DNA of 64,000 nt from an uncultured Pseudomonadota bacterium. GTDB taxonomy: Bacteria; Pseudomonadota; Gammaproteobacteria; Steroidobacterales; Steroidobacteraceae. A program made the position numbers and the translations under genes. The stretch lies in contig CADEED010000002.1 of assembly GCA_902826225.1 (NCBI GenBank), positions 3,890 to 67,889 on the forward strand, read 5' to 3'. Positions 2,996 to 18,736 of the stretch are shown piece after piece; within the stretch, counting starts at the first letter, position 1; each line of letters opens with the position of its first letter. The notes beneath the pieces are model-generated. The model did no database searches. It was not told where the DNA came from and saw only the letters and a list, made by a program, of their open reading frames with translations.

Positions 2996-4720
2996 TCAGC
3001 GGCGCGCCGGCCAATCCTTCGCCGCGGCGCGGCATCCGCCGTCGGGCCAACCCTTCCAGCCCTGCCCACGCACCACGCGGCCGGTCGCCTTGCCGGTCGG
3101 CTCGCCATTCGAGAGCGCGACGCCACCATTGATGACGACGTGCGATACGCCCGTCGAATACTGCATCGGCTTCTCGAACGTCGCGTGGTCCTGGATGGCG
3201 GCTGCGTCGAACACGACGACATCCGCGAAGTAACCTGGGGCGAGCTTGCCGCGATCCTTGAGCGCGAGGTTCGTCGCGGGTAGTGAAGTGAGGCGGCGAA
3301 CCGCTTCCGGCAGCGTGATCAGTTTTTCATCGCGGACGTACCTGCCCAAGAGTCGCGCGATGTTGCCGTAGGCGCGCGGGTGCGTGCTGGACTCGAGGAA
3401 CACGCCCTCGGGCGCCGAGGCTTCGGCATCGGACCCGAAGCTCATGTACGGCAGCTTGATCTGCTGGCGCACGTTGTCTTCGGACATCAGGAAATACACC
3501 GTTTCCACGCGCGCGCCGTCCTCGATCACGAGGTCGATGGCCGCGTCCTCCGGACTCACGCCGCGCATGCGCGCGACTTCGGAGAGACGCTTGCCCGTGA
3601 GCGGCTTGAGCTTCGGGTTCTTGAATCCGATGAGCAGCACGTTGTCCGCGCTGCCGGCACTGCGATACAGGCTCTCCCAATCCTTGGAGTCCGAGCGCAT
3701 CTCGGCGATGACGCGCGCGCGGATCTTGGGATCCTTGAGGCGCTTGATCCATTCTTCCACGCCGCCGGCCTGCACCCAGGTCGGCATGGCCGCGTCGAGA
3801 CCGGTAGCGCCGGCGACATAGGTATACATGTCGGTGGTGACGTGCAGGCCTTCCGCGCGGGCCTTATCGATGCGCGCGATGGCGGCGTCGAGCTTGCTCC
3901 AGTTGGCGCGGCCCGCGGCCTTCAGGTGATAGATCTCGACGGGGACCTGCGCGCGCCGCGCGATCTCGACGGTTTCGTCGATGGCTTCGAGCAGGCGATC
4001 GCCTTCGCTGCGCATGTGCGTGATGTAGCTGCCACCGCAGCGGGCCGCTTCGGCCGAGATAGCGACGAGCTCGTCGGTTTCGGCGAAGGTACCGGGCGCG
4101 TAGATGAGTGAGGAGCCGACGCCGAGCGCGCCTTCCTCCATCGCGGTGCGCACGAGTCCGCGCATCGCGTCGAGTTGCGCGGGCGTCGGGTCCACGTCGC
4201 CCTCGCCGAGCACGTGGACGCGCGTGGTCTCGGCGCCGATGAAGGACGCGACGTTCGGCGCGACGCCTTTCTTCTGCAGGAATTCGAGGTACTGGTCCAG
4301 CGACGTCCAGGTGATGTCGTACCGGATGTCAGTCTGCCGCGCCTTGGCCAGCGTCTTCATCTCCGGAGTCAGTGGCCCCATCGAGCTGCCCTCGCCGAAC
4401 ACCTGCAGCGTGACGCCCTGGCGCAGGTCGCTCTGCCCGCGGCCATCGGCGATCAGCGACTCGACGGACCAGCTCAGCATGTTGATGAAGCCGGGAGCGA
4501 TCGCCTTGCCGCGCGCGTCGATCACGGTCTTGGCGTTGTCGCCGCGCGACTTGCCGACGTAGACGAGGCGATCGCCGTCGACGACGACATCACCGATGTA
4601 ACCTTCGGCGCCAGTGCCGTCGAGGATCGTGCCGCCGCGGACGACGAGGTCGTGGTCGGCGGCTTGCACGATGGTCGCGCACGCGATCGAGAGAATCGTC
4701 AGTCCGAGAATCGTGCGCAT
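2996..4720 (-). CDS. N-acyl-D-amino-acid deacylase (D-aminoacylase), amidohydrolase superfamily, secreted
   Basis: 574 aa. Signal peptide MRTILGLTILSIACATIVQA, then DLVVRGGTILDGTG...IAPGFINMLSW, typical of D-aminoacylases. Confidence 0.8.
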   Translation of the reverse strand: MRTILGLTILSIACATIVQAADHDLVVRGGTILDGTGAEGYIGDVVVDGDRLVYVGKSRGDNAKTVIDARGKAIAPGFINMLSWSVESLIADGRGQSDLRQGVTLQVFGEGSSMGPLTPEMKTLAKARQTDIRYDITWTSLDQYLEFLQKKGVAPNVASFIGAETTRVHVLGEGDVDPTPAQLDAMRGLVRTAMEEGALGVGSSLIYAPGTFAETDELVAISAEAARCGGSYITHMRSEGDRLLEAIDETVEIARRAQVPVEIYHLKAAGRANWSKLDAAIARIDKARAEGLHVTTDMYTYVAGATGLDAAMPTWVQAGGVEEWIKRLKDPKIRARVIAEMRSDSKDWESLYRSAGSADNVLLIGFKNPKLKPLTGKRLSEVARMRGVSPEDAAIDLVIEDGARVETVYFLMSEDNVRQQIKLPYMSFGSDAEASAPEGVFLESSTHPRAYGNIARLLGRYVRDEKLITLPEAVRRLTSLPATNLALKDRGKLAPGYFADVVVFDAAAIQDHATFEKPMQYSTGVSHVVINGGVALSNGEPTGKATGRVVRGQGWKGWPDGGCRAAAKDWPARR

Positions 4721-4738
4721 GTCGAACCTCGCGGATTG

Positions 4739-4755
4739 AAGGGGTCTGACCCCTT
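4739..4755. repeat. stop-adjacent hairpin AAGGGG-TCTGA-CCCCTT, a copy of the AGGGGNCAGAC motif
   Basis: On the minus strand it reads TAAGGGGTCAGACCCCTTC immediately after the panE-fragment stop. Related motif occurs at 541-559, 592-611 and 18718-18736. Confidence 0.45.
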
Positions 4756-4912
4756 ATTCTTGTGCTGCTTCCAGCAGTGCCACCATCAGCGCATTCATCG
4801 GCGCGTCGATGCCGTGCTTGCGGCCGAGCCGGACGATGACGCCGTTGCGCGCATCGTATTCCATCGGGCGCTTCGCGCGGCGATCGGCCAGCATCGAGTC
4901 GATTCGTGGCGT
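4754..4912 (-). pseudogene. panE: 3' fragment of 2-dehydropantoate 2-reductase (last ~50 codons only)
   Basis: Minus-strand translation RIDSMLADRRAKRPMEYDARNGVIVRLGRKHGIDAPMNALMVALLEAAQE* matches the PanE/ApbA C-terminal motif (SML.D...GR.tEid..nG.vv..G...g...P.n). An in-frame TGA lies just upstream at about 4913-4915, and there is no N-terminal Rossmann part. Confidence 0.55.
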
Positions 4913-6660
4913 TCAACAGCGATGGCACCACGCGTTGGGAGACGCCGCTGCCCGTGTCGACGGGCTTCAAGTCGAGCAACGGACCAGTCGTTCTGGACGA
5001 TGCGACGATTCTCGTGCCCGCAACGCCGCAGGACTACATCATTCTCGGAACCGGACGAGGACTGGCGCCGACCGGATGGCCCGCGCGCGATCGCGATGTC
5101 CGCGGCTCACGCAATGCAGGAGGCGTCGCGCCGATGCCGCCGAACGCGGCACCATCCATCGTGATCACCGACCCGATCACAGTGTCCGTCAGTCTCGACA
5201 TCGGCGAACCGAAGACTGTACGCGCTCGGGCGTCGGATTCGGTTGAGGGAGACATCAGCGCCGCGATTCGCTGGACATCGTCGCTCGAAGGTGAGTTCGC
5301 GACGGGTCCAACGGCGTCCTTGACGGCTCTGGGTGCCGGGACGCACACCATCACGGCGACGGTGACGGACAGCCAGAACCTCTCGGACACGGCAACATTG
5401 CAAATGACCAAGGGGGCATTCGCGCCCGAGCTTTCACTCCTAACGCCTTGGTACGGGCAGACATTCGATGTCAGGCAGCAGATCAACTTTTCGGCGACGG
5501 CCGTGGATCGGGGTGATGGCTTCATTGGTCACCTGATTCGCTGGTCCTCGGATCGAGACGGGCAGATCGGGACAGGCGGGCAAGTAGCGCGCACCAATCT
5601 GACGGCCGGTTCACACACGATCACCGCGACCGTGACGGACAGCTTCGGCTTGACGGCCACGCGCACGGTGCCGATCGAGATCGTGCAGATGGCGCCGGTC
5701 ATCACGCACTCGCCCTATGACCAGGCCGAACTCGACCTCGGCGCGGCCGTGGAGTTCTTCGGGACGGCGACCGACTACGGCGATGGGGATGTGAGTGACA
5801 CCCTGGTCTGGACGTCCGATCGGGACGGCCTGTTGGGGAACGGGCAGACGTTCCTGATCTCGAGCCTCTCCGAGGGCACGCACGTCATCACGGTGACCGC
5901 GCAGGACGACAGCGGAACTGAGACTTCAACCCAGTTCACCGTCATTGTCCGGCCGACGCCACCGACCCTGCAGATCGAGTCCCCCGGCGATTGGAGCTAC
6001 TGGGAAGTCGGCTCGGACATCGGCTTCTACGGGACTGCCTACGACACGACCGATGGTGACATTAGCGCGATGATCCAGTGGTCGTCATTGCTCGACGGCC
6101 CAATTGGCACAGGTCAGGGCTATTTCTATCGGAACGATCTCAGCGTCGGCACGCACATCATCACGGCGACCGTGACGGATTCCGATGGGCAGACGGCGAC
6201 GATGGAGCGCTACATGACGGTCGCGGATCCCAACAACTCGGCGCCGTCCGTGTACATCTACTCGCCGGAGTGGGGCTCGCAGCATTCCGAAAACACCTCC
6301 ATCTCATTGCAGGCCGAGGCTTACGACTATGAGGAGGGGGAACTGACGAATATCCAATGGTCATCGGATCTGCAGGGGCCGCTTGGCGTCGGTGCGAGCA
6401 TAAGCACGTCTGCACTCGGGGTCGGCACGCATCAGATCAAGGCGCTGATCACCGACAGTTCGGGCGCGAAGGGGGTGTACGCAATCACCATCCACGTCGT
6501 GTCCTCTCTCACGTCGCTCGCTCGGGAAATCGCGCGCGAGTCGCTGGTCGCAAGCCGTGAGCCCGAACCTCGACCCGATTCGCCTCGTCTGCCCGAGCGC
6601 GTGGCGCTCGTGGCTGCCCTAACTTCAGAGTCCCGCAACTCGAGCGGAGGTGTGCAATGA
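4906..6660 (+). CDS. Ig-like (PKD/Big-like) tandem-repeat protein, apparently 5'-truncated; translationally coupled to the first toxin gene
   Basis: Five ~90 aa repeats with pattern D..DGD.S..I.W.S..DG.(L/I)G.G......L..G.H.ITATVTDS.G. The first ~80 aa look like the end of a PQQ-like beta-propeller (FNSDGTTRWETP...GWPARDRDVRGSRNAG). No signal peptide. The stop overlaps the next ATG (ATGA at 6657-6660). Confidence 0.7.
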   Translation: MAFNSDGTTRWETPLPVSTGFKSSNGPVVLDDATILVPATPQDYIILGTGRGLAPTGWPARDRDVRGSRNAGGVAPMPPNAAPSIVITDPITVSVSLDIGEPKTVRARASDSVEGDISAAIRWTSSLEGEFATGPTASLTALGAGTHTITATVTDSQNLSDTATLQMTKGAFAPELSLLTPWYGQTFDVRQQINFSATAVDRGDGFIGHLIRWSSDRDGQIGTGGQVARTNLTAGSHTITATVTDSFGLTATRTVPIEIVQMAPVITHSPYDQAELDLGAAVEFFGTATDYGDGDVSDTLVWTSDRDGLLGNGQTFLISSLSEGTHVITVTAQDDSGTETSTQFTVIVRPTPPTLQIESPGDWSYWEVGSDIGFYGTAYDTTDGDISAMIQWSSLLDGPIGTGQGYFYRNDLSVGTHIITATVTDSDGQTATMERYMTVADPNNSAPSVYIYSPEWGSQHSENTSISLQAEAYDYEEGELTNIQWSSDLQGPLGVGASISTSALGVGTHQIKALITDSSGAKGVYAITIHVVSSLTSLAREIARESLVASREPEPRPDSPRLPERVALVAALTSESRNSSGGVQ

Positions 6661-7547
6661 GCTTCCATGGAATGTTCACTCGCGGCCTTGTCGCCGCGCT
6701 GCTGCTGTGCCTGGGCTCGCAGGTCTTTGCCGCGCGCACGACGACCTACCTGCACAACGACGGTCTCGGCTCCGTCGTCGCCGCGACCAACCAGGCAGGC
6801 GCCGTGCTGTGGCGCAAGGACTACGCGCCGTTCGGCGAGCAGATCGACTCGACGCCTGACAGTGAGCGCACCGCCTACACGGGCAAGCAGCACGACGACG
6901 CCATCGGGCTCACCTACTTCGGTGGCCGGCACTTCGATCCTGAGCTCGGGCGATTCACCAGCGTCGACCCGGTCGCGTTCACCGAACAGAACGCGATGAG
7001 CTTCAACCGATACCTGTACGTGAACAACAACCCGTACAAGTATGTGGATCCGGATGGGGAGTTCCTGACCTACGTCGCGAAGTTCGTGATCGACGTGGGC
7101 ATCAACGTCGCGTTGAACTACGTCACAACCGGCGAGGCGAACCTCAAAGGTGCACTGAAGGAATCAGTAATCGGACTCATCAATCCGATCCCGGGCAAAA
7201 ATGCCGGCAAACTCGTGATGGCGATTGCCAAGGCGGGCAAGAAGGCGCCGGAGCCATCAACAGTATCCTCGGCCGCAAGGATACTCAATCCGGAGCAGGC
7301 CGCGAACCTCGCCAGGTTTGAGAAGAAACTTCCCGCTGGCGCTGGACCTACCAAAGTCCATGACTTACCTATTGGGGGCAAGGCCTTCCAGGCTGAAGTT
7401 CCAGGACGCGTCCCTGGGTCGAAGGCCGTTTACGAAAAGCAATTGGACGCGAACGGAATGACGACTGGCTACACAAAAACTACATATGCTCCGGCAGGCG
7501 ACATTGTTCATGTCAAAGACAAGATCACTGGTGAGACTTTCCCGTGA
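6657..7547 (+). CDS. mini-RHS polymorphic toxin 1: signal peptide + RHS core stub + helical linker + unassigned C-terminal domain
   Basis: GGAGG sits 6 nt upstream of the ATG. Signal peptide MSFHGMFTRGLVAALLLCLGSQVFA|A. YD/RHS core ...YTGKQHDDAIGLTYFGGRHFDPELGRFTSVDP...NRYLYVNNNPYKYVDPDGEF. Linker with TTGE ends at KKAPEP. The unique last ~96 aa have no motif I recognise. Confidence 0.85.
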   Translation: MSFHGMFTRGLVAALLLCLGSQVFAARTTTYLHNDGLGSVVAATNQAGAVLWRKDYAPFGEQIDSTPDSERTAYTGKQHDDAIGLTYFGGRHFDPELGRFTSVDPVAFTEQNAMSFNRYLYVNNNPYKYVDPDGEFLTYVAKFVIDVGINVALNYVTTGEANLKGALKESVIGLINPIPGKNAGKLVMAIAKAGKKAPEPSTVSSAARILNPEQAANLARFEKKLPAGAGPTKVHDLPIGGKAFQAEVPGRVPGSKAVYEKQLDANGMTTGYTKTTYAPAGDIVHVKDKITGETFP

Positions 7548-7888
7548 AAAGCAGAACTGATCTCCTTCTTGAGCTTCTCCACGCAAGCCGACCGGCTGAT
7601 CAGATCACGCGGGAGCTTGCCGCCCTTGGATGGGACAGCGACGCAGAGTTAGCGGTCATCACCAAGCGGGACATCGGCGAAATGCTGATGAAGTTCCTGA
7701 AAGGATCAGCCACAGGAAGTGCCGTGCAGGCTTGGGCTGAAGCAATCGAGAGCCGTGATGACGTGGGTCTTGAGCCCGGCTCGCAAGAGATTCTGAAACA
7801 AACTCTTTTCGAACTTGCCAACCCGGATCTCACTAGAAAGTTGACTCCGATCTTGGCGCAGAAGTTGATAGACGATTTGCGGCTTTAG
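7544..7888 (+). CDS. putative cognate immunity protein 1
   Basis: 114 aa, helical-looking. GTG start overlaps the toxin stop (GTGA). Lower GC than the backbone. Function assigned by position only. Confidence 0.65.
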   Translation: MKSRTDLLLELLHASRPADQITRELAALGWDSDAELAVITKRDIGEMLMKFLKGSATGSAVQAWAEAIESRDDVGLEPGSQEILKQTLFELANPDLTRKLTPILAQKLIDDLRL

Positions 7889-7910
7889 CTGCGCGTAGGC
7901 GGTGCAAACT

Positions 7911-8083
7911 ATCACCATCCACGTCGTGCACTCACTGACGTAGTTCGCTAGAGAGATCGCTGGAGAGTTGCCGGTCGCAAGCCGTGAGCCCGAACCTCGA
8001 CCCGATCCCCCTCGTCTGCCCGAACGCGTGGCGCTCGTGGCTGCCCTAACTTCAGAGTCCCGCAACTCGAGCGGAGGTGTGCA
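7911..8083 (+). pseudogene. decayed copy of the 3' end of the Ig-like repeat gene (equivalent to 6484-6656)
   Basis: Starts atcaccatccacgtcgtg as at 6484, diverges and picks up stops (tag), then is near-identical from ggtcgcaagccgtgagcccgaacctcgaccc through the GGAGG and ATG. Confidence 0.7.
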
Positions 8084-9010
8084 ATGAGCTTCCATGGAAT
8101 GTTCACTCGCGGCCTTGTCGCCGCGCTGCTGCTGTGCCTGGGCTCGCAGGTCTTTGCCGCGCGCACGACGACCTACCTGCACAACGACGGTCTCGGCTCC
8201 GTCGTCGCCGCGACCAACCAGGCAGGCGCCGTGCTGTGGCGCAAGGACTACGCGCCGTTCGGCGAGCAGATCGACTCGACGCCTGACAGTGAGCGCACCG
8301 CCTACACGGGCAAGCAGCACGACGACGCCATCGGGCTCACCTACTTCGGTGGCCGGCACTTCGATCCTGAGCTCGGGCGATTCACCAGCGTCGACCCGGT
8401 CGCGTTCACCGAACAGAACGCGATGAGCTTCAACCGATACCTGTACGTGAACAACAACCCGTACAAATATGTGGATCCGGATGGGGAGTTCCTGAACTTC
8501 GCGGCGAAGTTCGTGCTCGATGTGGGCGTGAACATGGCGATCAACTACCTCACCACGGGGGAGTTGAATGTATCCGGCGCGCTGAAGGACTCAGCAATCG
8601 GACTCCTCAATCCCGCGAAGACTACCGCCGGCATCGGAAAGCTGGGAATGGTTCTTTCCAAGGGAGGCAAGGTCACTCCCGACGCCGGCAGCATTGCATC
8701 AGCGACAAGCAAGGCTACCAAACCGGGTCGCGTGAAGAATCACCATCGAGAAGCACCCGACGCTGACGGTCGTCCACATACGTCGTACCGCACCGACGCC
8801 GAGGGACGGGTCACATCTTACGAGACGTACAACTATCCGTCGTCGGGAGTCGGCAAGCGTGTAGATGCAGTCGGGCCGCCGCATAATGGAATCCCGACAC
8901 CACATGTGGTCTCGACAAGCAAGCACGCGAACCCGAAGGACTCAACGAAGTTCTCGTTTAAGGAGACAGGAACGCGCCCAGCGCGGCCCGACGAGATACC
9001 ACGAAGATAG
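8084..9010 (+). CDS. mini-RHS polymorphic toxin 2: same N-terminal module, diverged linker, unassigned His-rich C-terminal domain
   Basis: First 136 aa identical to toxin 1. Linker is homologous but diverged (FAAKFVLDVGVNMAINYLTTGELNVSGALKDSAIGLLNP). C-terminal domain ...GRVKNHHREAPDADGRPHTSYRTDAEGRVTSYETYN...GPPHNGIPTPHVV... Confidence 0.85.
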   Translation: MSFHGMFTRGLVAALLLCLGSQVFAARTTTYLHNDGLGSVVAATNQAGAVLWRKDYAPFGEQIDSTPDSERTAYTGKQHDDAIGLTYFGGRHFDPELGRFTSVDPVAFTEQNAMSFNRYLYVNNNPYKYVDPDGEFLNFAAKFVLDVGVNMAINYLTTGELNVSGALKDSAIGLLNPAKTTAGIGKLGMVLSKGGKVTPDAGSIASATSKATKPGRVKNHHREAPDADGRPHTSYRTDAEGRVTSYETYNYPSSGVGKRVDAVGPPHNGIPTPHVVSTSKHANPKDSTKFSFKETGTRPARPDEIPRR

Positions 9011-9018
9011 GAGCGACC

Positions 9019-9462
9019 GTGAGGATCAGTGAGACTCAACTGGCTGGATTGGACGACTTTCATGCATGGAACGAAGGTAAGACGAGTGCAGAACGTATTT
9101 CGCTCCTGGACTACGCAACTTTTAACGCAACACCGGAGCTGCTTTTTGCTTTTGCAGCGCTGCTGCTCTGCGACCTCATCGAGGTGGAAGGTCACTACTT
9201 CATCGCCGATCGATTCAATCGTGTCTTTTACGAAAGATGGAAGCTGCAGCTGAATGACGGTAAGTCAGTCCAGCGAGTCATGAATCACCTGCACATCAGC
9301 ACACTGCTTCAAAACGCCGAACTCACTGACGACTTGGCCAAGTCCTGCGCCGACCTGATCGCATCTGCATGGTCCGAAGCTCATGCCGCGAAGGGCGTGG
9401 TTGGCGAGGTCCATGGGACTACTCTCGACGATCTTGCGGTTACGCTCGTAAATGGGCGCTAG
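9019..9462 (+). CDS. putative cognate immunity protein 2 (paralog at 2536-2973)
   Basis: 147 aa. GTG start 8 nt after the toxin stop, preceded by taGGAGcg. Lower GC. Confidence 0.7.
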   Translation: MRISETQLAGLDDFHAWNEGKTSAERISLLDYATFNATPELLFAFAALLLCDLIEVEGHYFIADRFNRVFYERWKLQLNDGKSVQRVMNHLHISTLLQNAELTDDLAKSCADLIASAWSEAHAAKGVVGEVHGTTLDDLAVTLVNGR

Positions 9463-9498
9463 TTGGCTTGAGGCTTTTGGGCCGAGTCGAATCAATCC

Positions 9499-9620
9499 TG
9501 CGGATGCGTAGCGTCCGGGTCAATGATCCGAAAAATCTTTCGGGTGCTTGCAGTTCCTGCAATCCCAGCAAGGGGAGCCGCAAACTTGGTTCGGAATGGA
9601 TAGCACCCAACAAAAGGTAG
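9499..9620 (+). pseudogene. 3' remnant of an HNH toxin domain, homologous to the end of toxin 6
   Basis: ...RSVRVNDPKNLSGACSSCNPSKGSRKLGSEWIAPNKR* aligns with ...RSARVNEPKNLSGACTSCNPSKGSRKLGSEWTAPKDR* at 17990-18103. There is no N-terminal module or start codon. Confidence 0.75.
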
Positions 9621-9623
9621 TTA

Positions 9624-10067
9624 ATGAGTCAAGCATCTTCGGTGTACGTTCGAAAGTACGGCAATCCTGACCGTACCGCCGAATACATTTCCCGCGGTGG
9701 CAGCCGCATACAGGTATTTAGATGGGACGCAGACAAGACAGGTGAAGGCGTCACCGTACATGCCACAGCGGGCGCGTCCGACGTGCTTGGTGATGAGACT
9801 CGGGCGTGCGAGTTCTTTGTCGGCTTATCGCCGCCAGTCGATGATATTGCCGAAGCAATCGCAGAAATCGCGCTGCGCGGGATCGGTGGTACCAGCATCC
9901 CCTCGTCTGGAGACACGACCACACTCCCTTTCCCTCTCTGGTCCGGCACCCTGATGCAGAGCGTACTTTTTACAGACGGTTCTGAACTCATTCCGAGCTA
10001 CACGGACTCGACCAAACGACTGGACTTCATCCAGTTGGTACCACTCTATGATTCAGAGCTTGAATAA
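9624..10067 (+). CDS. SUFU-like immunity paralog of 18107-18640, cut short by an in-frame TAA (homology continues in frame to 10157)
   Basis: About 75% identical by eye to immunity 6. TAA at 10065-10067 replaces the Phe codon of the paralog. The same frame then reads KKSNGDKALWREFELRAVAYWNSDRKPAW* ending at 10157, giving the same 534 nt total length as 18107-18640. Confidence 0.7.
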   Translation: MSQASSVYVRKYGNPDRTAEYISRGGSRIQVFRWDADKTGEGVTVHATAGASDVLGDETRACEFFVGLSPPVDDIAEAIAEIALRGIGGTSIPSSGDTTTLPFPLWSGTLMQSVLFTDGSELIPSYTDSTKRLDFIQLVPLYDSELE

Positions 10068-10316
10068 AAAAAGAGCAACGGAGACAAGGCGCTCTGGCGA
10101 GAGTTTGAGTTAAGGGCAGTCGCGTACTGGAACTCAGATCGCAAACCGGCGTGGTAGTCGACTGACCACTTTACCAACCGAACCAAAAGTCAGGCGAAGC
10201 ACAAGGGTGTCGAAATACCAGGTTGTGACAAGGATGGAGTCCCGTCGCAGGCCAGAACGATTGGCCTTGGTGGGTTCTCTAGTTGCTGAGTCCCGGGCCT
10301 CTGGCGGAGGTGTGCG

Positions 10317-11246
10317 ATGAGATTTCATAAAATGATCTCCCGCGGCCTAGCCGCCGCGCTGCTGCTGTGCTTGGGCTCGCAAGCCTTCGCCGCGCGCACG
10401 ACGACCTACCTGCACAACGACGGTCTCGGCTCCGTCGTCGCCGCGACCAACCAGGCAGGCGCCGTGCTGTGGCGCAAGGACTACGCGCCGTTCGGCGAGC
10501 AGATCGACTCGACGCCTGACAGTGAGCGCACCGCCTACACGGGCAAGCAGCACGACGACGCCATCGGGCTCACCTACTTCGGTGGCCGGCACTTCGATCC
10601 TGAGCTCGGGCGATTCACCAGCGTCGACCCGGTCGCGTTCACCGAACAGAACGCGATGAGCTTCAACCGATACCTGTACGTGAACAACAACCCGTACAAG
10701 TACGTGGATCCGGATGGAGAGTTCCTCACCTACGTCGCGAAGTTCGTGATCGACGTGGGCATCAACGTCGCGCTGAACTACGTCACGACGGGTGAGGCGA
10801 ATCTCAAGGGGGCGCTCAAAGAGTCGGTCATCGGGCTCATCAATCCGATCCCAGGGAAGAACGCCGGCAAGTTGCTGATGGCGCTTGGTAAAGCGAGTAA
10901 GAAGGCACCCGATCCAAGGGCGACAATGGGAATCGCTTCGAAAGTCGACAATGCGGCTCCGGACTTCGATACAGCGAGGCGAGCAGCCTTTGACAAGGCA
11001 GGCATGACAGACCCATCAAGAGTTGTGTTCTCCAAGGTTGATCCAAAGACAGGTACAGTGGTTGAGTTCAAAGGGTCGGGAGGGGCGAAAGTTGGGTATG
11101 ACGGTCCGCACAAATCTCCGGGACCGCACCACGATACACAACACATCTCTTGGCAGACCGGTGGAAAACGCAGTCAGGGCGGTCGAGAACGCGGCAATGA
11201 ACCCTACTCTGGTCCTCAGCATCCTTCGCGACCAGACAGGAAATAG
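10317..11246 (+). CDS. mini-RHS polymorphic toxin 3: putative HNH/EndoVII-fold nuclease C-terminal domain
   Basis: Conserved N-terminal module and linker up to KKAPDP. C-terminal domain FDTARRAAFDKAGMTDPSRVVF...GYDGPHKSPGPHHDTQHISWQTGGK resembles His-rich HNH/EndoVII toxin families. That family call is tentative. Confidence 0.8.
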   Translation: MRFHKMISRGLAAALLLCLGSQAFAARTTTYLHNDGLGSVVAATNQAGAVLWRKDYAPFGEQIDSTPDSERTAYTGKQHDDAIGLTYFGGRHFDPELGRFTSVDPVAFTEQNAMSFNRYLYVNNNPYKYVDPDGEFLTYVAKFVIDVGINVALNYVTTGEANLKGALKESVIGLINPIPGKNAGKLLMALGKASKKAPDPRATMGIASKVDNAAPDFDTARRAAFDKAGMTDPSRVVFSKVDPKTGTVVEFKGSGGAKVGYDGPHKSPGPHHDTQHISWQTGGKRSQGGRERGNEPYSGPQHPSRPDRK

Positions 11247-11248
11247 AA

Positions 11249-11680
11249 GTGATTGACGCCGAATTACTATCTGATATCGACGCCATTACAGGAGCTACGC
11301 CTGCTCTACGGACGCTGGAAGCCTCGAAAGCTGAAGAACTGCGAATACGCGTTGGTCAATTGTACGTGCGGGACACTGATTCTCTTTGGTGGTGGGCAAA
11401 CCTCAAAATTCCGATTAGGCGTGTCAGCTATGATCAAGACGACGGTGTAAGCCACTTGATTGAAATCGTCGGTGATGCGAAGGAACTTCTTCTGTTCATT
11501 ACCGACGACGAGTCGCCACCATGGCCGGTTGTAAGTGGTGACGTTGCGAGTATTGGCACACTACTTCGCGAGGTTCGGCACTTCGAGTACTTCATCACAC
11601 CAACGGACTTGAGCTGGATCGCGTTTGATACTCATCAGAACGAAATCGTGACTTCGCGAATGGCAACGAAATCAGAGTGA
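11249..11680 (+). CDS. putative cognate immunity protein 3
   Basis: 143 aa. GTG start 2 nt after the toxin stop. Two 60-nt samples I counted by hand gave about 52-57% GC. Confidence 0.65.
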   Translation: MIDAELLSDIDAITGATPALRTLEASKAEELRIRVGQLYVRDTDSLWWWANLKIPIRRVSYDQDDGVSHLIEIVGDAKELLLFITDDESPPWPVVSGDVASIGTLLREVRHFEYFITPTDLSWIAFDTHQNEIVTSRMATKSE

Positions 11681-12031
11681 GCAGGGGATGTTTGCCAAGC
11701 CGCGTACTGGATTCGTTGCTGCTTCAAAACATATGAAGCGACGAAGAGGCAGTGAAGTCTGTCACTCTTGCGCGATGAGCGAATACAACGTTATGCAGTG
11801 AAGCGAGGGATCAGAATCCAGACGGCTCTTGGACATGCGCAACGTGTGGGCAGAAAACGGATAATCCTGCCAATGTCCACGCCGGGCATAAGAAGGCGCG
11901 GTCGCATGGCGGGGACCTTTCAGATGGCAATCTTCGCTGCGAGGGCGCAGCTTGCAATTTAAGCCAAGGAAATCGAGCCGCGCCCTCATCTGGAATGAGT
12001 TGCGCAGAGCGAGGGAGTTGCGGCGCACCCT

Positions 12032-12529
12032 GTGGACGATCGGACTAGAACCATGACGCACGATCATGTGAGGGTTATTGTAGAAGGAGCCGACAAGGCG
12101 GGGTTCGAGCTCGTTCCAGCACGCAGTCTTGGAAGCGACCACTGGTTACTGCTTCGCACTCCAATGTATGCGCTGCAGTTGGCGGCAGGCGATACGATCA
12201 GATCGCCGAACGACAATTCCGGTGAGTTCGAAGTGATCAGTCGTGGCGGCAACGTCGCTGTGCAGTTTTATCTCGCAGAAGGTAATGCGGACAGCGTTCA
12301 GGAAACCGCAAGTGTGGCGCTTAGTATTGCGCCCGAGATTGAATTGTTAGGCGGCCGCCTTGATGGTCAGACAGCGGGCTTGCTCGTCTATACAGTTCCT
12401 GTCACAGCAGGATTCTCAGCCATCGAGCAAATCTTCCAGTCAGCCGCAAAGAGATTTCCAGGCTCTCAGTGGCAGTACTCCAACATCTACGATTCAGTGA
12501 CCGGCGAAGCGCTCAACTGGTGGAGCTAA
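12032..12529 (+). CDS. orphan immunity-like protein (DUF4265-like by eye); start may be the ATG at 12053
   Basis: 165 aa ORF with no toxin gene upstream. The segment ...GSDHWLLLRTPMYALQLAAGDTIRS...EFEVISRGGNVAVQFY resembles DUF4265 proteins seen in toxin-immunity loci. Confidence 0.5.
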   Translation: MDDRTRTMTHDHVRVIVEGADKAGFELVPARSLGSDHWLLLRTPMYALQLAAGDTIRSPNDNSGEFEVISRGGNVAVQFYLAEGNADSVQETASVALSIAPEIELLGGRLDGQTAGLLVYTVPVTAGFSAIEQIFQSAAKRFPGSQWQYSNIYDSVTGEALNWWS

Positions 12530-12677
12530 GAGCCTGGCAGGCTGCTTGACGAATGAGTCTTCTTCACCGGCGAAGCGGCCTTGTACTTCTTCTTGCGGTG
12601 AGTGCTCGGAGCTGCTTGCAATCTCGCAAAGCACATAGAACGCACAAGCCCTCCCTCCACTTTTTGTGTGGAGACAC

Positions 12678-12707
12678 GGAAACAAAACGGGGCGCCTAAG
12701 CGCCCCG
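12678..12707 (-). terminator. orphan rho-independent terminator, minus-strand orientation
   Basis: Stem CGGGGCGC/GCGCCCCG with a 4 nt loop. On the minus strand it is followed by TTTTGTTT. The hairpin is nearly identical to the cox terminator at 18696-18715. Confidence 0.5.
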
Positions 12708-12718
12708 TGAAGATCACC

Positions 12719-13095
12719 GCGGCCGTGGAGTTCTTCGGGACGGCGACCGACTACGGCGATGGGGATGTGAGTGACACCCTGGTCTGGACGTCCGATCGGG
12801 ACGGCCTGTTGGGGAACGGGCAGACGTTCCTGATCTCGAGCCTTTCCGAGGGCACGCACGTCATCACGGTGACGCGCAGGACGACAGCGGCACCGAGACC
12901 TCCGTTCAGTTCACCGTCATCGTCAGACCGACGCCGCCGACGGTCCAGATCGATTCCCCGACTGACTGGAGTTACTGGGAAGTCGGCTCGGACATCGGCT
13001 TCTACGGGACTGCCTACGACACAACTGACGGTGACATCAGCGCGATGCTCCAGTGGTCGTCGTTGATCGACGGCCCACTCGGCGCAGGTCAGGGC
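12719..13095 (+). pseudogene. internal fragment of the Ig-like repeat gene (equivalent to 5741-6118), frameshifted
   Basis: Near-identical to 5741 onward (AVEFFGTATDYGDGDVSDTLVWTSDRDGLLGNGQTF...). It is 1 nt shorter at about 12874 (gtgacgcgcag versus gtgaccgcgcag), which breaks the frame. Confidence 0.8.
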
Positions 13096-13381
13096 TACAG
13101 CCCGGACATCAGCGTATCGCTCGAAGACCGAAGTGTTTACATAGCATTCCATGCTGGAACTGCCGCTCAACGAAACGAACTCTTGAACGAGATAAGCAAA
13201 CAAGCGGCCAATGAATTTCGTGTCGAACTGCAATTCGAAGAGCTTTGATCTCCCTGCTCAAGACGTTTCACGCGATGGGTACGCGCCGACTCTGACTTGG
13301 GATGAATGGGCAGAAGCTAGTTCACCCAACGGCTTGGGGTCTTCCGACTGCTGAGCTTCGCATTGCTAGCGGAGGTGTGCG

Positions 13382-14233
13382 ATGAGCCTTCATGCGTTGA
13401 TCACTCGTGGCCTGGTCGCCGCGCTGCTGCTGTGCCTAGGCTCGCAGGTCTTTGCCGCGCGCACGACGACCTACCTGCACAACGACGGTCTCGGCTCCGT
13501 CGTCGCCGCGACCAACCAGGCAGGCGCCGTGCTGTGGCGCAAGGACTACGCGCCGTTCGGCGAGCAGATCGACTCGACGCCTGACAGTGAGCGCACCGCC
13601 TACACGGGCAAGCAGCACGACGACGCCATCGGGCTCACCTACTTCGGTGGCCGGCACTTCGATCCTGAGCTCGGGCGATTCACCAGCGTCGACCCGGTCG
13701 CGTTCACCGAACAGAACGCGATGAGCTTCAACCGATACCTGTACGTGAATAACAACCCGTACAAGTATGTGGATCCGGATGGGGAATTTCTGACCTACGT
13801 CGCGAAGTTCGTCATCGACGTGGGCATCAACGTCGCGTTGAACTATGTCACGACGGGGGAAGCGAACCTCAAAGGTGCACTGAAAGAATCGGTGATCGGA
13901 CTCATCAATCCGATTCCGGGAAAAAACGCCGGCAAGCTGCTGATGGCGCTCGGCAAAGCGAGCAAAAGGGCACCTGACCCGAGTGGAGCAGCGAGCTTTG
14001 CCGATAAGGCAAGCAAGGGTGGGGTGTTTGGCGGCATGACTCGAAAGGAGGCATACGGAAATCCTTCGAGTTCTGCGGCTGCAAAAAGGGCGCGGGAGAA
14101 CGCAGAAGGCACCGCGTGCCCCAGCTGCGGAAAAACCATGCGTTCGGGAACGGAATCAGCCCCTGTCGGATCACTTCAACGGGGCAGGCAAGACGATGAC
14201 GTCCACCGAGCGTCGACAGTATGCTCGTACTGA
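13382..14233 (+). CDS. mini-RHS polymorphic toxin 4: HNH-like C-terminal domain, apparently frameshifted (original end probably 14309)
   Basis: Conserved N-terminal module and linker up to KRAPDP. C-terminal domain contains CPSCGKTM. The expected DH motif and an ATGA overlap with the next ORF appear only after a frame change near the CCCC run at 14160-14163. Confidence 0.75.
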   Translation: MSLHALITRGLVAALLLCLGSQVFAARTTTYLHNDGLGSVVAATNQAGAVLWRKDYAPFGEQIDSTPDSERTAYTGKQHDDAIGLTYFGGRHFDPELGRFTSVDPVAFTEQNAMSFNRYLYVNNNPYKYVDPDGEFLTYVAKFVIDVGINVALNYVTTGEANLKGALKESVIGLINPIPGKNAGKLLMALGKASKRAPDPSGAASFADKASKGGVFGGMTRKEAYGNPSSSAAAKRARENAEGTACPSCGKTMRSGTESAPVGSLQRGRQDDDVHRASTVCSY

Positions 14234-14305
14234 AGGCGCCATCAACGGCGCTAAGTGCAAAGTCCGCCAGCAGAATGAAGGGCGCGAAATGCAGAAAGAA
14301 CATCG

Positions 14306-14878
14306 ATGACGATACAAGTTTATGAACGCTATCGTATTGCGTTGGATGGCAGGCTTTCAATTCTGGGGCTGTCAGCCAGTCGAGCGACAGCGTTCGGAGA
14401 GAAGGTTCAGAGCTTTGATGGCGACGTCATGGCAGTCCGATACTCGTCCAAGGACAGGTCCTTTCTTCTGTCGAGAGGATGTGCCAAATACCCAGGGGCG
14501 AATCGCGGATGGCGTGATGAGTTCTTGGTAGAGGAATCCGCCGGCGAAGAGTTCTCCCTCAGTTTGCTCGAGCTGACTGTCTACTACCATCTAACACGCC
14601 GTCCGGTGGAGCCTAGTGATGTTATCGAAATAGGGAGAATCGCGGGAAATGATGCAGGTTACTCACACGTCTACAGCTCGGTACCGTTCTTTCTCCCTGG
14701 CAGCGTGAATGCGATCCAGATGGAGGGTGCCAATTTTGCTTTGCAATGGTTGATGCCGATCTTTCCCCGAGAAGCCGCATTTATCGAAGCGAACGGGTCT
14801 GACAAGTTCGAGACGAGACTGAGATCATCACAGTATGACTTCTTTGACGCTCGTTTAGATCTCGACTACCTGAACTGA
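14306..14878 (+). CDS. putative cognate immunity protein 4 (SUFU-like C-terminal half by eye)
   Basis: 190 aa. The ATG overlaps the stop of the shifted toxin frame (ATGA at 14306-14309). The C-terminus ...FALQWLMPIFPREAAFIEANGSDKFETRL...D..R follows the SUFU-like pattern. Confidence 0.65.
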   Translation: MTIQVYERYRIALDGRLSILGLSASRATAFGEKVQSFDGDVMAVRYSSKDRSFLLSRGCAKYPGANRGWRDEFLVEESAGEEFSLSLLELTVYYHLTRRPVEPSDVIEIGRIAGNDAGYSHVYSSVPFFLPGSVNAIQMEGANFALQWLMPIFPREAAFIEANGSDKFETRLRSSQYDFFDARLDLDYLN

Positions 14879-14943
14879 GTTAGTGCGCATGTCGGACGCT
14901 GAGGACATTACAAACGGTAACGGCAACAAGTTGGCTTCGGACA

Positions 14944-15426
14944 ATGGCTGATGCGTCAGGATCGAAACAATGGCGAATCGGCGATGTTTTCACGATTCCA
15001 ACGAAGGACGGACAGCTCGCCATCGGGCAAATCGTTGGCGTGGAGCCCGACCTGCTCTCCAGTGCCACAGTGGCTCTGTTCGACGAGCGGCACGCATCCA
15101 TCGAAGGGGCTCGAATTCACGCATCGCTGTCACCCGAGAATCTATTCGCTGTGCTCTACGTGACGAAGAACCACCTGGACTCCGGTGACTGGAGAGTTGT
15201 CGACCATCGCAAAGTAGAGGTCGACCCGCGCACGAATCCGTTTGAGCACACGCGAAGCAAAGGATTCATTGGTGCGAAGGTGTTTGGTGCGGACATCGTC
15301 AACGAGTTCGTGAACGCGTTTTACGGGTTGGTTCCTTGGGATGACTGGAAGGACCCGAATTACCTGGATGCCCTGTTGATCTCGAAGGACGTAAAGCCCG
15401 TGGGGCGTTTGATATTCAAGAGCTGA
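14944..15426 (+). CDS. orphan immunity-like protein (Imm26-like by eye)
   Basis: 160 aa with no toxin upstream. WRIGDVFTIPTKDGQLAIGQIVG...PWDDWKDPNYLDALL resembles Imm26-type immunity proteins. Confidence 0.5.
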   Translation: MADASGSKQWRIGDVFTIPTKDGQLAIGQIVGVEPDLLSSATVALFDERHASIEGARIHASLSPENLFAVLYVTKNHLDSGDWRVVDHRKVEVDPRTNPFEHTRSKGFIGAKVFGADIVNEFVNAFYGLVPWDDWKDPNYLDALLISKDVKPVGRLIFKS

Positions 15427-15521
15427 CGTTGGGCCAGAGACTGACTGCTTTCGCGATCTTCGCCAAGATCGCTTGCGGCTATCCTGAACATAGAGTCTCG
15501 CGTCTCGAGCGGGGGTGTGCG

Positions 15522-16463
15522 ATGAGGTCTCATGAACTGATCACCCGCGGTCTCGTCGCCATGCTGCTGCTGAGCCTCGGCGCTCAAGCATTCGCAGCGC
15601 GCACGACGACCTACCTGCACAACGACGGTCTCGGCTCCGTCGTCGCCGCGACCAACCAGGCAGGCGCCGTGCTGTGGCGCAAGGACTACGCGCCGTTCGG
15701 CGAGCAGATCGACTCGACGCCTGACAGTGAGCGCACCGCCTACACGGGCAAGCAGCACGACGACGCCATCGGGCTCACCTACTTCGGTGGCCGGCACTTC
15801 GATCCTGAGCTCGGGCGATTCACCAGCGTCGACCCGGTCGCGTTCACCGAACAGAACGCGATGAGCTTCAACCGATACCTGTACGTGAACAACAACCCGT
15901 ACAAGTACGTGGATCCGGATGGAGAGTTCCTCACCTACGTCGCGAAGTTCGTGATCGACGTGGGCATCAACGTCGCGCTGAACTACGTCACGACGGGTGA
16001 GGCGAATCTCAAGGGGGCGCTCAAAGAGTCGGTCATCGGGCTCATCAATCCGATCCCAGGGAAGAACGCCGGCAAGTTGCTGATGGCGCTTGGTAAAGCG
16101 AGCAAGAAAGCGCCAGATCCCGGCGCGGCAACGGGGATCTTGGCAAACAAAGCGTCAGGAGATGCTTTCGCCCGAAAGGCAATCGCTTCGCTGAAAGAGA
16201 CACAGTCGGGCGTCGTTCAAGAAGTAACAGTTCGTACAAAAAGCGGCGTGCGGACGCGTCTCGACGCGCTTGGTAGAGATGCCTCGAGCGCTGTCCGATG
16301 TAGTGAGTGCAAGGGATCGGCTGCCGCGCGACTAACTACCAATCAAACGAAAGCGTTTCCTGAGATCGAGAAATCTGGCGCAGTTGTCGTTGGCAAAGGA
16401 AAGCCGGGCTTTCCGGGAGGTACCGTGATACCTCCAACCAAAGTCGATATCATCAGGCCATAG
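15522..16463 (+). CDS. mini-RHS polymorphic toxin 5: restriction-endonuclease-fold (PD-(D/E)xK-like) C-terminal domain
   Basis: Start taken at Met32 of ORF 15429..16463 (MRSHELITRGLVAMLLLSLGAQAFA|A), preceded by GGGGG. Conserved core and linker up to KKAPDP. C-terminal domain ...EVTVRTKSGVRTRLDALGRD...VRCSECKGSAAARLTTNQ gives a D...E-x-K signature. Confidence 0.8.
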   Translation: MRSHELITRGLVAMLLLSLGAQAFAARTTTYLHNDGLGSVVAATNQAGAVLWRKDYAPFGEQIDSTPDSERTAYTGKQHDDAIGLTYFGGRHFDPELGRFTSVDPVAFTEQNAMSFNRYLYVNNNPYKYVDPDGEFLTYVAKFVIDVGINVALNYVTTGEANLKGALKESVIGLINPIPGKNAGKLLMALGKASKKAPDPGAATGILANKASGDAFARKAIASLKETQSGVVQEVTVRTKSGVRTRLDALGRDASSAVRCSECKGSAAARLTTNQTKAFPEIEKSGAVVVGKGKPGFPGGTVIPPTKVDIIRP

Positions 16464-16475
16464 CGCGAGATACTT

Positions 16476-16811
16476 ATGGCGATCGACCAACCCGATAAAA
16501 TCGATGCGATTGGACTGGACAATCTCACTTCGAGGGTCGTGCTCACGATTGCCGACCACCTTCCATGGCTAGGTGACGCTGAGGCACATCGAAATCACCT
16601 GCGCGATAAGTTGAACACGTATTTGGCATTTACAGAAAGCGGGGAACTCGCCGAGGCATATCCTGACTCGAAAGGAAGATCAGTCACTATCAGCGTGATC
16701 GGCAAGTACGACCTTTCGCCAGTTGGGAAGGAGTTCTACGAGAATGCCAGCCAAGCACTCGCTAAATCGGGAATAGGCCTGGAGTTCAAGAAGCTCGGCG
16801 CATCTGAGTAG
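16476..16811 (+). CDS. putative cognate immunity protein 5
   Basis: 111 aa. ATG 12 nt after the toxin stop. Function assigned by position only. Confidence 0.65.
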   Translation: MAIDQPDKIDAIGLDNLTSRVVLTIADHLPWLGDAEAHRNHLRDKLNTYLAFTESGELAEAYPDSKGRSVTISVIGKYDLSPVGKEFYENASQALAKSGIGLEFKKLGASE

Positions 16812-16857
16812 TGTGCACGAACGTTCCGAAACGAGGACGGGGCGCTGAGGTGCTCCG

Positions 16858-17191
16858 TCGCGCATACGAAGAAGGCTACCTCACCGACATACATTGGTCG
16901 TCGAATCTCGAGGGACAGCTCGGAGTCGGTACGAGCATCGAGACCCCCGGACTCAGTGTCGGCACGCACGATCAAGGCGCTGATCACCGACAGTTCGGGC
17001 GCGAAGGGGGTGTACGCAATCACCATCCACGTCGTGTCCTCTCTCACGTCGCTCGCTCGGGAAATCGCGCGCGAGTCGCTGGTCGCAAGCCGTGAGCCCG
17101 AACCTCGACCCGATTCGCCTCGTCTGCCCGAGCGCGTGGCGCTCGTGGCTGCCCTAACTTCAGAGTCCCGCAACTCGAGCGGAGGTGTGCA
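16858..17191 (+). pseudogene. 3' fragment of the Ig-like repeat gene (last repeat plus tail), frameshifted
   Basis: AYEEGYLTDIHWSSNLEGQLGVGTSIETPGLSVGTH is a diverged version of repeat 5. It is 2 nt shorter at about 16968 (gcacgatcaagg versus gcatcagatcaagg). After that it is identical to 6437-6656 up to the next ATG. Confidence 0.8.
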
Positions 17192-18103: not shown

Positions 18104-18106
18104 GCG

Positions 18107-18640: not shown

Positions 18641-18683
18641 CCCGGGCTGCGTTCCCGAGATCCGAGTCAAGTGTGAATTGCGC

Positions 18684-18715
18684 GCGAGAATGAAACGGGG
18701 CGCCGAAGCGCCCCG
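18684..18715 (-). terminator. rho-independent terminator of the cox operon
   Basis: Stem CGGGGCGC/GCGCCCCG (18696-18715) with loop CGAA. On the minus strand it is followed by TTTCATTCTC. Confidence 0.6.
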
Positions 18716-18717
18716 AG

Positions 18718-18736
18718 TTAAAGGTGTCTGTCCCCT
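18718..18736. repeat. stop-adjacent AGGGGNCAGAC motif copy
   Basis: The minus strand reads TAA-AGGGGACAGACACCTTTAA directly after the coxC stop. Confidence 0.4.

Follow-up and report, generated by a model that had tools for sequence, protein, structure and literature searches.

Six paralogous cartridge genes in a Steroidobacteraceae contig

The plus strand of a 64,000-nucleotide stretch of DNA from an uncultured gammaproteobacterium of the family Steroidobacteraceae (contig CADEED010000002.1, positions 3,890 to 67,889 of the forward strand, GenBank assembly GCA_902826225.1; the whole stretch is referred to as the window) carries an array of six paralogous open reading frames (ORFs), identified by ORF listing, repeat finding and alignment. 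All six are open. Each of these genes, here called cartridges, encodes a signal-peptide-like leader, the last strands of an Rhs-type YD shell, an RHS core with a putative aspartyl autoprotease, a linker and a toxin part that diverges between the copies (Table 1). The cartridges and their relatives in other genomes are referred to as stubs.

A GCGGAGG or GCGGGGG element was found 6 nt before the ATG in all six copies, the Shine-Dalgarno part being GGAGG in five of them and GGGGG in copy 5. In the N-terminus, MSFHGMFTRGLVAALLLCLGSQVFA|ARTTTY, a basic n-region is followed by a hydrophobic core free of charges, with V-F-A at positions -3/-1, and residues 1-25 resemble a Sec signal peptide. The test applied was a crude rule, which says only that a segment is signal-peptide-like and whose predicted cleavage site shifts with the tie-break; it was passed by 113 of 113 full-length members of the stub family versus 29 of 1185 internal control segments. 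The six leaders differ at 11 of 25 codon columns by one count and at 18 of 25 by another, yet all of them pass. By eye, the leader does not look like a lipoprotein signal, as LLLC has Leu at -1, where a lipobox usually has Gly, Ala or Ser, and the Cys is missing in copy 5 and in most relatives. A preliminary description of this DNA, made from the sequence alone, had taken the six copies for independently translated genes and not for start-less orphan fragments. This was borne out, since ATG, Shine-Dalgarno element and leader are kept in each copy and the leader also in about 113 diverged homologues.

The six cartridge proteins do not differ at residues 26-137. The 110 amino acids (aa) of RHS core that precede DPDGEF (residues 131-136), noted already in the preliminary description, correspond to residues 26-135, and TIGR03696 (Rhs_assc_core) matches aa 56-134 in each copy with E = 5e-22. 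The motif reads P126-x4-D131-P-D-G134, with E and not L as its fifth residue. The Pfam TEN_YD-shell profile was matched only at its positions 786-907 of 909, which leaves about 40 aa of shell strands before the core. Only RHS-related domains were detected with Pfam and NCBIfam in the N-terminal halves of the cartridges, and MafB-N (DUF1020) was not among them.

Behind the motif, a segment of about 60 aa is conserved among the six proteins and was modelled by AlphaFold2 as three helices, after which the toxins diverge. The term nuclease, used in the preliminary description, is not established for any copy: Ntox24 and Ntox47 were found in one copy each, the HNH match of copy 6 (E 0.0016, 19.0 bits) lies below the curated cut-off of 21.4, and the Pfam scan gave no toxin match for copies 1, 4 and 5.

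Several further observations concern the toxin and linker parts. The toxin of cartridge 4 aligns with its GH-E/HNH-type relative P0022 only to CPSCGKTMRS and then departs, and another frame stays open to the start of the immunity gene, which may reflect a frameshift or a sequencing error. The linker (7062-7250 in cartridge 1) and its equivalents in the family comprise 50-60 aa of amphipathic or hydrophobic helices (FLTYVAKFVIDVGINVALNYVTTGE...) and are Gly/Ala-rich in distant members. No PT-TG or other Pfam domain was detected in the post-cleavage linker, even at E <= 1, and the best solved-structure match (SGS1) aligns into this region too. The linker may be a membrane-entry segment. In a promoter and terminator scan of positions 4600-18800 the counts were no higher than the shuffled expectation.

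Stubs form a widespread family of short genes

The search with the first 198 aa as the query revealed 204 homologues, nearly all of 290-325 aa and with many different toxin domains, so the domain order of the cartridges does recur in databases, as had been asked in the preliminary description. The cartridge pattern is far beyond chance. The leaders of the family diverge in sequence, as in MIKKFITTIGLITLLLVSINTQA|ETKITYFHND from Colwellia and ...GLSLAHA|ERTTTYYH from a gammaproteobacterial metagenome-assembled genome (MAG). In all cases a basic start and a hydrophobic stretch free of charges are retained, and a small-x-small site lies a few residues ahead of the first RHS strand.

In GTDB, with one genome per species, 547 stretches encode relatives, and the best 71 loci with a locatable core motif were used. 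The short form, with an in-frame stop at most 520 and usually 125-250 codons upstream of the core motif, was observed in 69 of them, and ordinary long rhs genes in only two. The possibility that the relatives are simply the 3' ends of full-length rhs genes devoid of ATG and leader fails in these 69 loci. Stubs were found in Steroidobacter, Exilibacterium, Shewanella, Hahella, Colwellia, Pseudomonas, Methylovorus, Rhodanobacter and Ca. Thiodiazotropha as well as in Burkholderiales and Rhodocyclaceae MAGs, the family spanning many Gamma- and Betaproteobacteria. Judged by their sequences, the stubs are a real and widespread family of predicted independently translated genes, not fragments.

The array layout of core fragment, toxin and immunity gene is present in the window and in the related loci L002, L010, L013, L021 and L026. 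The Exilibacterium loci L019 and L024 were considered as arrays remote from their shell locus and rejected as such, as all three loci lie at contig ends and are possibly contiguous.

A core-less shell gene precedes the stubs in most relatives

Upstream regions were compared in 42 informative loci, i.e., short-form loci in which 5 kb or more of DNA was available upstream, and a shell was looked for within 10 kb upstream. Shell homology was detected in 31 of the 42, always on the strand of the stub and in no locus on the opposite strand. In these 31 loci the gene directly upstream of the first stub (gene A, the stub being gene B) is a shell gene of 1,100-3,300 aa that lacks the core and has its own signal peptide and a complete YD shell. 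The stop of gene A and the start of gene B are separated by -4 nt (an ATGA overlap) in seven loci, counting the window, and by -1 nt in one; the remaining measured loci have a gap of 11-72 nt, usually with a GGAG-like element.

The locus L002, which has the neighbour leuA in common with the window, illustrates the arrangement. The 2291-aa gene ahead of its first stub shares 4 nt with it at the stop codon and encodes a signal peptide, DUF6531 and about 1,200 aa of YD repeats, with the Rhs part ending at "...DYVRLGALNIARSDD", followed by TSP3 repeats and then PQQ beta-propellers. The L002 shell could be aligned from end to end with the products of about 25 upstream ORFs, which are 850-3,300 aa long (E from 0 to 1e-42). 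Gene A of the relatives has the order signal peptide, N-terminal DUF6531-type region, whole YD shell and optional external PQQ, TSP3, PKD, HYR or Big domains. Gene B encodes a further signal peptide, a few final YD strands, the plug with the predicted aspartyl autoprotease (P-x4-DPxG), the linker and a polymorphic toxin; it is often translationally coupled to gene A by the ATGA overlap and is followed by a putative cytoplasmic immunity gene.

With the L002 shell as the query, 120 shell-family proteins were retrieved, 113 of which pass the signal-peptide rule. Bare shells of 1,100-1,200 aa account for 42 of the 120, about 60 have C-terminal extensions (PKD, HYR, Big_3_5, PQQ and others), and four, including P0173 with a variant motif, have a core of their own. 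In the reciprocal lookup in isolate genomes, two of three shells (Acidovorax sp. LjRoot194 and Arhodomonas sp. AD133) had a ~300-aa stub and then a small ORF behind them. Pairs of shell and stub are also present in cultured strains of Pseudomonas (including P. aegrilactucae and P. syringae pv. cilantro), Methylovorus (M. menthalis) and Colwellia.

The ends of the extended shells are of several types. Sixteen of the 60 extension-bearing shells end in a short hydrophobic tail (...PVILQLLLED or ...AVMVAINYLILN), another group ends in ...YYSVDTAGNxExTxTEVLQ, and three end in a PEP-CTERM-like PPWA with a transmembrane segment and a basic tail; the tail types were seen in L015, L031, L033, L037, L040, L043, L044, L053, L062, P0140, P0157, P0183 and others. 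The same parts are arranged differently in Usitatibacter rugosus (L080; CP053069.1, 786449-799943), in which the gene behind a bare 1164-aa shell is not a stub and encodes a Big_13/Big_7 protein of 795 aa, and the gene ahead of the shell encodes an Ig-rich protein of 1875 aa that has a match to the YD shell.

The split lies in one loop before the last shell strands

The Rhs part of gene A ends in a loop after the strand "...YIYLGGKRIAQ" and before the "YxHxDxLGS" strand, and then come a stop codon or the external domains. Bare shells end in "...EYIYLGGKRIAQRVTP*", and mature stubs begin with "ARTTTYLHNDGLGS". The fused single-gene relatives P0173, P0178 and P0218 run through the split point ("...HFYLGERRVAQAVGGGAPTTYLHNDLAGS", and in the same clade "...HFYLGERRVAQAVGGGAPTTYLHNDLAGSP...") without a leader-like insert. 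Taken together, the ends of the bare shells, the read-through of the fused relatives and the starts of the stubs indicate that the split form corresponds to a canonical Sec-dependent Rhs with an insert in one surface loop. As far as can be read from the alignments, what is inserted in this short loop is a stop codon, a predicted ribosome-binding site, an ATG and a second putative signal peptide.

In sequence alignments, the mature stub corresponds to the ~105 residues that immediately precede the cleavage site in TccC3, YenC2, RhsA, Tse5 and the teneurins. In RhsA, this conserved C-terminal part winds into the cocoon as a spiral, seals it and bears the catalytic residues D1324 and D1346 (PMC8765631). 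D104 and D131 of the stub align with this pair; D104 is invariant in both family alignments (26 and 76 sequences), and D131 is invariant in the 26 and present in at least 90% of the 76. Because of the alignment to the sealing region and the conserved Asp pair, the stub was taken to comprise plug, autoprotease and cargo.

The structure prediction, proposed in the preliminary description for residues 26-200, was run on stub residues 1-200 alone. Its confidence was low, with a predicted template modelling score of 0.29 and a pLDDT of 42-62 in the plug region. Such a poor model is weakly consistent with a piece that needs the shell to fold.

The shell gene of the window is truncated

Upstream of cartridge 1 there is only a 5'-truncated remnant of gene A, the TGA of which overlaps the cartridge ATG (ATGA). 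It comprises the last PQQ beta-propeller blade, about five Ig-like repeats of the PKD/HYR type (Pfam PKD, HYR and Big_7) and the C-terminal tail, and has no signal peptide, start context or YD repeats. It is colinear with the last 530 residues of a 2673-aa shell-propeller-Ig gene in the related locus L006 (42% identity, E 1e-105) and matches two segments of the gene A product of L002 (2291 aa), namely aa 2162-2254 and 2260-2288. The homology starts at position 4891, adjoining a fragment of panE, so that two genes are cut at one junction (~4891-4905). This junction is, to judge from the two truncated sequences, a deletion or rearrangement that reduced gene A to its last ~580 codons.

The tblastn search with the shell of a relative over the 64 kb revealed no shell in the window. 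Of the two genes of the split layout, the window has the gene B of about 300 aa and lacks the core-less shell gene directly upstream. In a protein search with the L002 shell, covering the 8000 candidates that share most words, the best match had 60% identity and none was traced to this assembly. The cartridges had previously been called shell-less, and the upstream Ig-like protein had been suggested as a partner. The first statement holds for the window and not for the family, which is not shell-less by design, given the shell gene upstream in 31 of 42 loci. The second pointed to the right gene, as the protein is a remnant of the C-terminal extension of the shell gene, and fails in that no start context, signal peptide or shell is left here. 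Because gene A is truncated at the panE junction, the six cartridges form an orphan array, which may use a shell encoded elsewhere in the incomplete MAG or may be decaying.

A second contig (L001/L003; CADEEJ010000201.1, 9.9 kb, taken as the same MAG) carries the same cartridges in another order together with a 322-aa fragment of gene A. It includes a chimera of the cartridge 5 leader and the Ntox47 toxin of cartridge 3, and the contig represents either a variant strain or another path through the assembly.

Table 1. Features of the cartridge array and its left flank, in window coordinates.
Feature	Position	Strand	Basis or remark
PanE/ApbA ketopantoate reductase, C-terminal fragment (last ~46 residues)	4754-4905	-	ApbA_C, E 8e-13, profile 79-124 of 125
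Gene A remnant, 5'-truncated ("Ig-like repeat protein")	4891-6660 (ORF 4906-6660)	+	Homology to gene A of L006 and L002; Pfam
Cartridge 1, 296 aa	6657-7547	+	ORF listing, Pfam, NCBIfam, alignment to solved structures, AlphaFold2
Cartridge 1, predicted signal peptide	6657-6731	+	
Cartridge 1, last YD strands, RHS core and putative aspartyl-protease plug (aa 26-135)	6732-7061	+	D104/D131
Cartridge 1, DPDGEF	7047-7064	+	
Cartridge 1, helical linker	~7062-7250	+	
Cartridge 1, toxin	~7251-7544	+	No known family
Candidate immunity gene of cartridge 1, 114 aa	7544-7888	+	No Pfam match or signal peptide; start overlaps the cartridge stop codon
Duplicated gene A 3' tail before cartridge 2	7891-8087	+	Repeat families D11, D13: 7891-8190 92% identical to 6464-6763
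Cartridge 2, 308 aa, Ntox24 toxin	8084-9010	+	Pfam, NCBIfam, alignment
Candidate immunity gene of cartridge 2, 147 aa	9019-9462	+	Paralogue at 2374-2973
Putative relic: C-terminal HNH-like toxin fragment (83-aa ORF, 9369-9620) and SUFU-type immunity gene (9624-10067)	9369-10067	+	SUFU, E 1e-4
Cartridge 3, 309 aa, Ntox47 toxin	10317-11246	+	Pfam, NCBIfam, alignment
Two candidate immunity genes: 11249-11680 (143 aa) and 12032-12529 (DUF4265)	11249-12529	+	
Gene A internal fragments (Ig-like repeats) before cartridge 4	12602-13248	+	Repeat families D15, D16: 12718-13097 86-99% identical to 5742-6122
Cartridge 4, 283 aa, GH-E/HNH-like toxin	13382-14233	+	Possibly frameshift-truncated near 14150
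Immunity genes: SUFU-type (14306-14878) and Imm26 (14944-15426)	14306-15426	+	
Cartridge 5, 313 aa from ATG, toxin without known family	15522-16463	+	GGGGG Shine-Dalgarno element
Candidate immunity gene, DUF6572	16476-16811	+	E 8e-28
Duplicated gene A 3' end before cartridge 6	16811-17195	+	Repeat family D12: 16970-17269 100% identical to 6435-6734
Cartridge 6, 303 aa, HNH-like toxin	17192-18103	+	Sub-threshold Pfam match
SUFU-type immunity gene of cartridge 6	18107-18640	+	E 7e-11

Immunity genes, duplications and neighbouring genes

Nine small genes stand behind the cartridges, and six of them belong to families associated with polymorphic toxins (three SUFU-type, Imm26, DUF4265 and DUF6572). 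No convincing signal peptide was detected in the nine, the crude rule having flagged only two, at the implausible positions of residues 27 and 39.

Pieces of the 3' part of gene A recur before cartridges 2, 4 and 6, and the duplication unit therefore consists of the gene A tail, gene B and the immunity gene. PQQ fragments stand before the later cartridges of L002 in the same manner. The six 330-nt cores differ by 0-4 nt from each other, with only five variable codon columns, all synonymous, and the flanking leader and linker are far more diverged. The core block of cartridge 1 and its five paralogues reflect either a sharply bounded homogenisation (gene conversion) or an assembly collapse. The conserved core is likely to act as a substrate of recombination, as its near-identity would suggest.

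The segment between cartridges 2 and 3 looks, from its sequence, like a displaced relic of a toxin tail and an immunity gene. Its 83-aa ORF ends as the toxin of cartridge 6 does (...NLSGACSSCNPSKGSRKLGSEWIAPNKR), and the segment belongs to repeat family D14 (9505-9804 vs. 17988-18287, 74% nucleotide identity). Outside the array, between leuA and an amidohydrolase gene, a 199-aa ORF (2374-2973) shares 52% identity over its last 145 aa with the candidate immunity protein of cartridge 2. This putative stray immunity paralogue suggests that the locus was once longer and was then rearranged.

The large ORFs of the window include genes for an aminotransferase, a radical-SAM/BATS (BioB-type) protein, a GMC oxidoreductase, RecG, a transglycosylase/transpeptidase penicillin-binding protein and one PEP-CTERM protein, as determined with Pfam. 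A 574-aa protein with an Lcl C-terminal domain and a PEP-CTERM sorting signal, encoded at 38958-40682 on the minus strand, is unrelated to the toxin locus.

A proposed two-gene Rhs system and the alternatives to it

On balance, the six ORFs are probably the plug-and-toxin cartridges of a two-gene, i.e., split, Sec-dependent Rhs system, of which the window holds an orphan array. In such a system Sec would export both chains unfolded and the leaders would be removed. The N-terminal strands of the stub would then extend the beta-spiral of the shell, and the plug would close the cocoon with the toxin inside. The Asp pair would cut after DPDGE, freeing the linker and the toxin, and the external domains on the C-terminus of the shell could provide surface display or target binding. 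Because the downstream cartridges keep their own ribosome-binding site and leader, several toxins could arm one shell, and loading would occur without recombination.

A bolder form of this proposal can be put forward only tentatively: Rhs cocoons could be assembled outside the cytoplasm from two Sec-exported chains, an open shell and an interchangeable cartridge, by strand complementation, with one shell armed with many toxins. If true, it would supersede the logic of classical rhs loci, in which orphans are silent and toxins are switched by recombination. In addition, the split would make the C-terminus of the shell available for large external domains with a targeting or anchoring role; a single-chain Rhs cannot carry them because its C-terminus ends inside the cocoon. 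A plug and cargo that are separately made and exported raise the question of how the toxin enters the cocoon and whether this is possible after membrane translocation. Arrays of "orphan" toxin cassettes should be reread, as those described here are apparently expressible and not silent, and the simple three-gene operons of cultured Acidovorax and Arhodomonas make the idea testable. The message of the window itself, a shell-less remnant of a split system in an incomplete MAG, is more modest.

A number of points weigh against the two-gene system. Genomic linkage alone is no proof of a physical assembly of shell and stub. The C-terminal toxin of a Sec substrate would have to enter a periplasmic shell, and the complex would have to cross the outer membrane. 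No secretion system was detected with Pfam among the ten large ORFs of the window, which gave housekeeping matches or none, and upstream of the shells no family-wide accessory or secretion gene was found in 23 loci, only pairwise matches between close relatives. In 11 of the 42 informative loci and in this window the stubs have no shell within 10 kb upstream, and some stubs may act alone. The last residue of the cleavage motif is E, R, K, Q or H and not L across the family. This objection is weak because RhsA has W at that position (PMC8765631). The ratio of nonsynonymous to synonymous substitutions calculated for the six cores is without power, since 0-4 differences in 330 nt leave selection unmeasurable. 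Finally, the region comes from a metagenome assembly, and the second contig joins the same pieces differently.

Among the alternatives, the stubs could be autonomous, each being a complete Sec-exported pro-toxin with the RHS core as a mere self-cleaving pro-domain and release by vesicles, the type II secretion system (T2SS) or lysis. This is unlikely. Every copy has its Shine-Dalgarno element, ATG and leader, the catalytic Asp pair sits in the stub itself, the window is devoid of a shell, and so are the upstream 10 kb of the 11 loci mentioned, including L007, L021 and L054, which lie inside long contigs. Against this, in 31 of 42 loci a shell gene without a core lies directly upstream, often with a 4-nt overlap, and the shells would be cocoons without plug or cargo unless the stub supplied both. 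Moreover, the split cuts a contiguous fold, the stub begins with shell strands, and the isolated stub models poorly.

Equally improbable is that the array became non-functional DNA after the loss of the shell and has simply not yet been disabled by mutation. The truncation of gene A and panE at one junction, the orphan toxin fragment 9369-9620, the possible frameshift in the toxin of cartridge 4 and the stray immunity paralogue would all fit such decay. The six ORFs are nevertheless open, with leader, core and immunity genes intact, the leaders vary yet all pass the signal-peptide rule, and in an incomplete MAG the shell gene may lie on another contig.

Misassembly of a repeat-rich metagenomic region, as the cause of the truncated shell gene or of the number and order of cartridges, has a still lower probability. 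It would be favoured by the near-identity of the 330-nt cores and by the second contig with its altered order and chimeric gene. Near-identical cores with diverged flanks fit a recombination hotspot and also make short-read assembly unreliable, and the copy number and order of the cartridges are untrustworthy. However, the junction at ~4891-4905 lies outside the detected repeats and joins two unrelated truncated genes, the stray upstream immunity paralogue suggests a genuine rearrangement, and the family-level conclusions are independent of the assembly.

The production of one polypeptide by frameshifting or readthrough at the junction of genes A and B, with the "leader" as an internal hydrophobic segment, is suggested by the ATGA overlaps in seven loci and is very improbable, given the 11-72 nt gap in most other loci, usually with a ribosome-binding site before the ATG, the lack of a conserved slippery sequence among those seen, the ATG and leader kept by downstream cartridges with no long gene ahead, and the truly fused relatives that have no leader-like insert.

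Comparison with known systems

All parts of the proposed two-gene system are known. They comprise the Rhs shell, the autoprotease of the core, polymorphic toxins accompanied by immunity genes, and the predicted class of Sec-dependent Rhs (Zhang et al. 2012, PMC3482391). The layout of a shell gene with separate plug-toxin genes bearing signal peptides is apparently undescribed: no split Sec-dependent Rhs was found in a literature search that included this source and covered subscription journals thinly, so that absence is not proof.

The MafB toxins of Neisseria have a Sec signal peptide, a conserved N-domain and a polymorphic toxin (PMC4436062 and PMC3482391). They resemble the stubs as polymorphic toxins of small size that are exported by Sec and occur in arrays together with immunity genes. 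They differ in that their N-domain is DUF1020 (MafB-N) and not an RHS core, and in having no autoprotease motif or shell partner.

Orphan rhs-CT/rhsI cassettes are likewise arranged in tandem downstream of a main gene, each with a conserved piece of the core, a different toxin and an immunity gene. The classical ones, studied by Poole et al. in 2011, are reportedly without translation starts, whereas each cassette here keeps a Shine-Dalgarno element, an ATG, a leader and, in the window, even a piece of the tail of the upstream gene.

Canonical single-chain Rhs proteins (RhsA of P. protegens, delivered by type VI secretion (T6SS), Tse5 and Rhs of E. coli) have the same terminal segment, with the "YxHxDxLGS" strands, the TIGR03696 core, the Asp pair and PxxxxDPxG, and share the variable toxin after the motif, the downstream immunity gene and additional cassettes in an array. 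In contrast to them, shell and plug-toxin are here separate genes, each with its own signal peptide, and the YD repeats, which in a single-chain polypeptide extend over several hundred to more than 1000 aa, are reduced to about 40 aa of shell strands in the cartridges. T6SS-delivered Rhs proteins have a PAAR or prePAAR N-terminus, or VgrG, T6SS or chaperone genes in the neighbourhood, and no signal peptide; here there is a Sec-type leader, and the scans of the cartridges and of the large window ORFs revealed neither PAAR nor VgrG.

The predicted "T2SS/Sec-dependent" class of RHS toxins (Zhang et al. 2012, PMC3482391) is closer. Its members, including WapA of Bacillus and Streptococcus, likewise combine an N-terminal signal peptide with an RHS shell, and the fused P0173, P0178 and P0218 belong to the same clade as the split genes. 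The known members are single polypeptides, unlike the genes described here, which are split in the loop before the last shell strands and in which the free C-terminus of the shell carries large added domains in about half of the 120 homologues.

To our knowledge, the solved Rhs and teneurin cocoons are all single-chain, except for the two-chain BC complex of the Tc toxins. The Tc complex assembles in the cytoplasm without signal peptides, and its TcB subunit carries SpvB and beta-propeller parts and docks to TcA. No SpvB or TcA domains were detected in Pfam scans of the cartridges, the gene A remnant and the L002 shell gene, and the PQQ propellers of gene A lie C-terminal to the shell, unlike the propeller parts of TcB. 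TcC moreover provides about 650 aa of the shell, compared with about 40 in the stub, and the chains are split elsewhere. The TcB-TcC cocoon of Tc/ABC toxins is nevertheless the closest functional analogy to the system proposed here from its genes alone, as it is built from two polypeptides, the second of which brings the autoprotease and the toxin, and accepts alternative second subunits from other loci; in Yersinia entomophaga, one BC shell packages cargo from several loci (PMC11067744).

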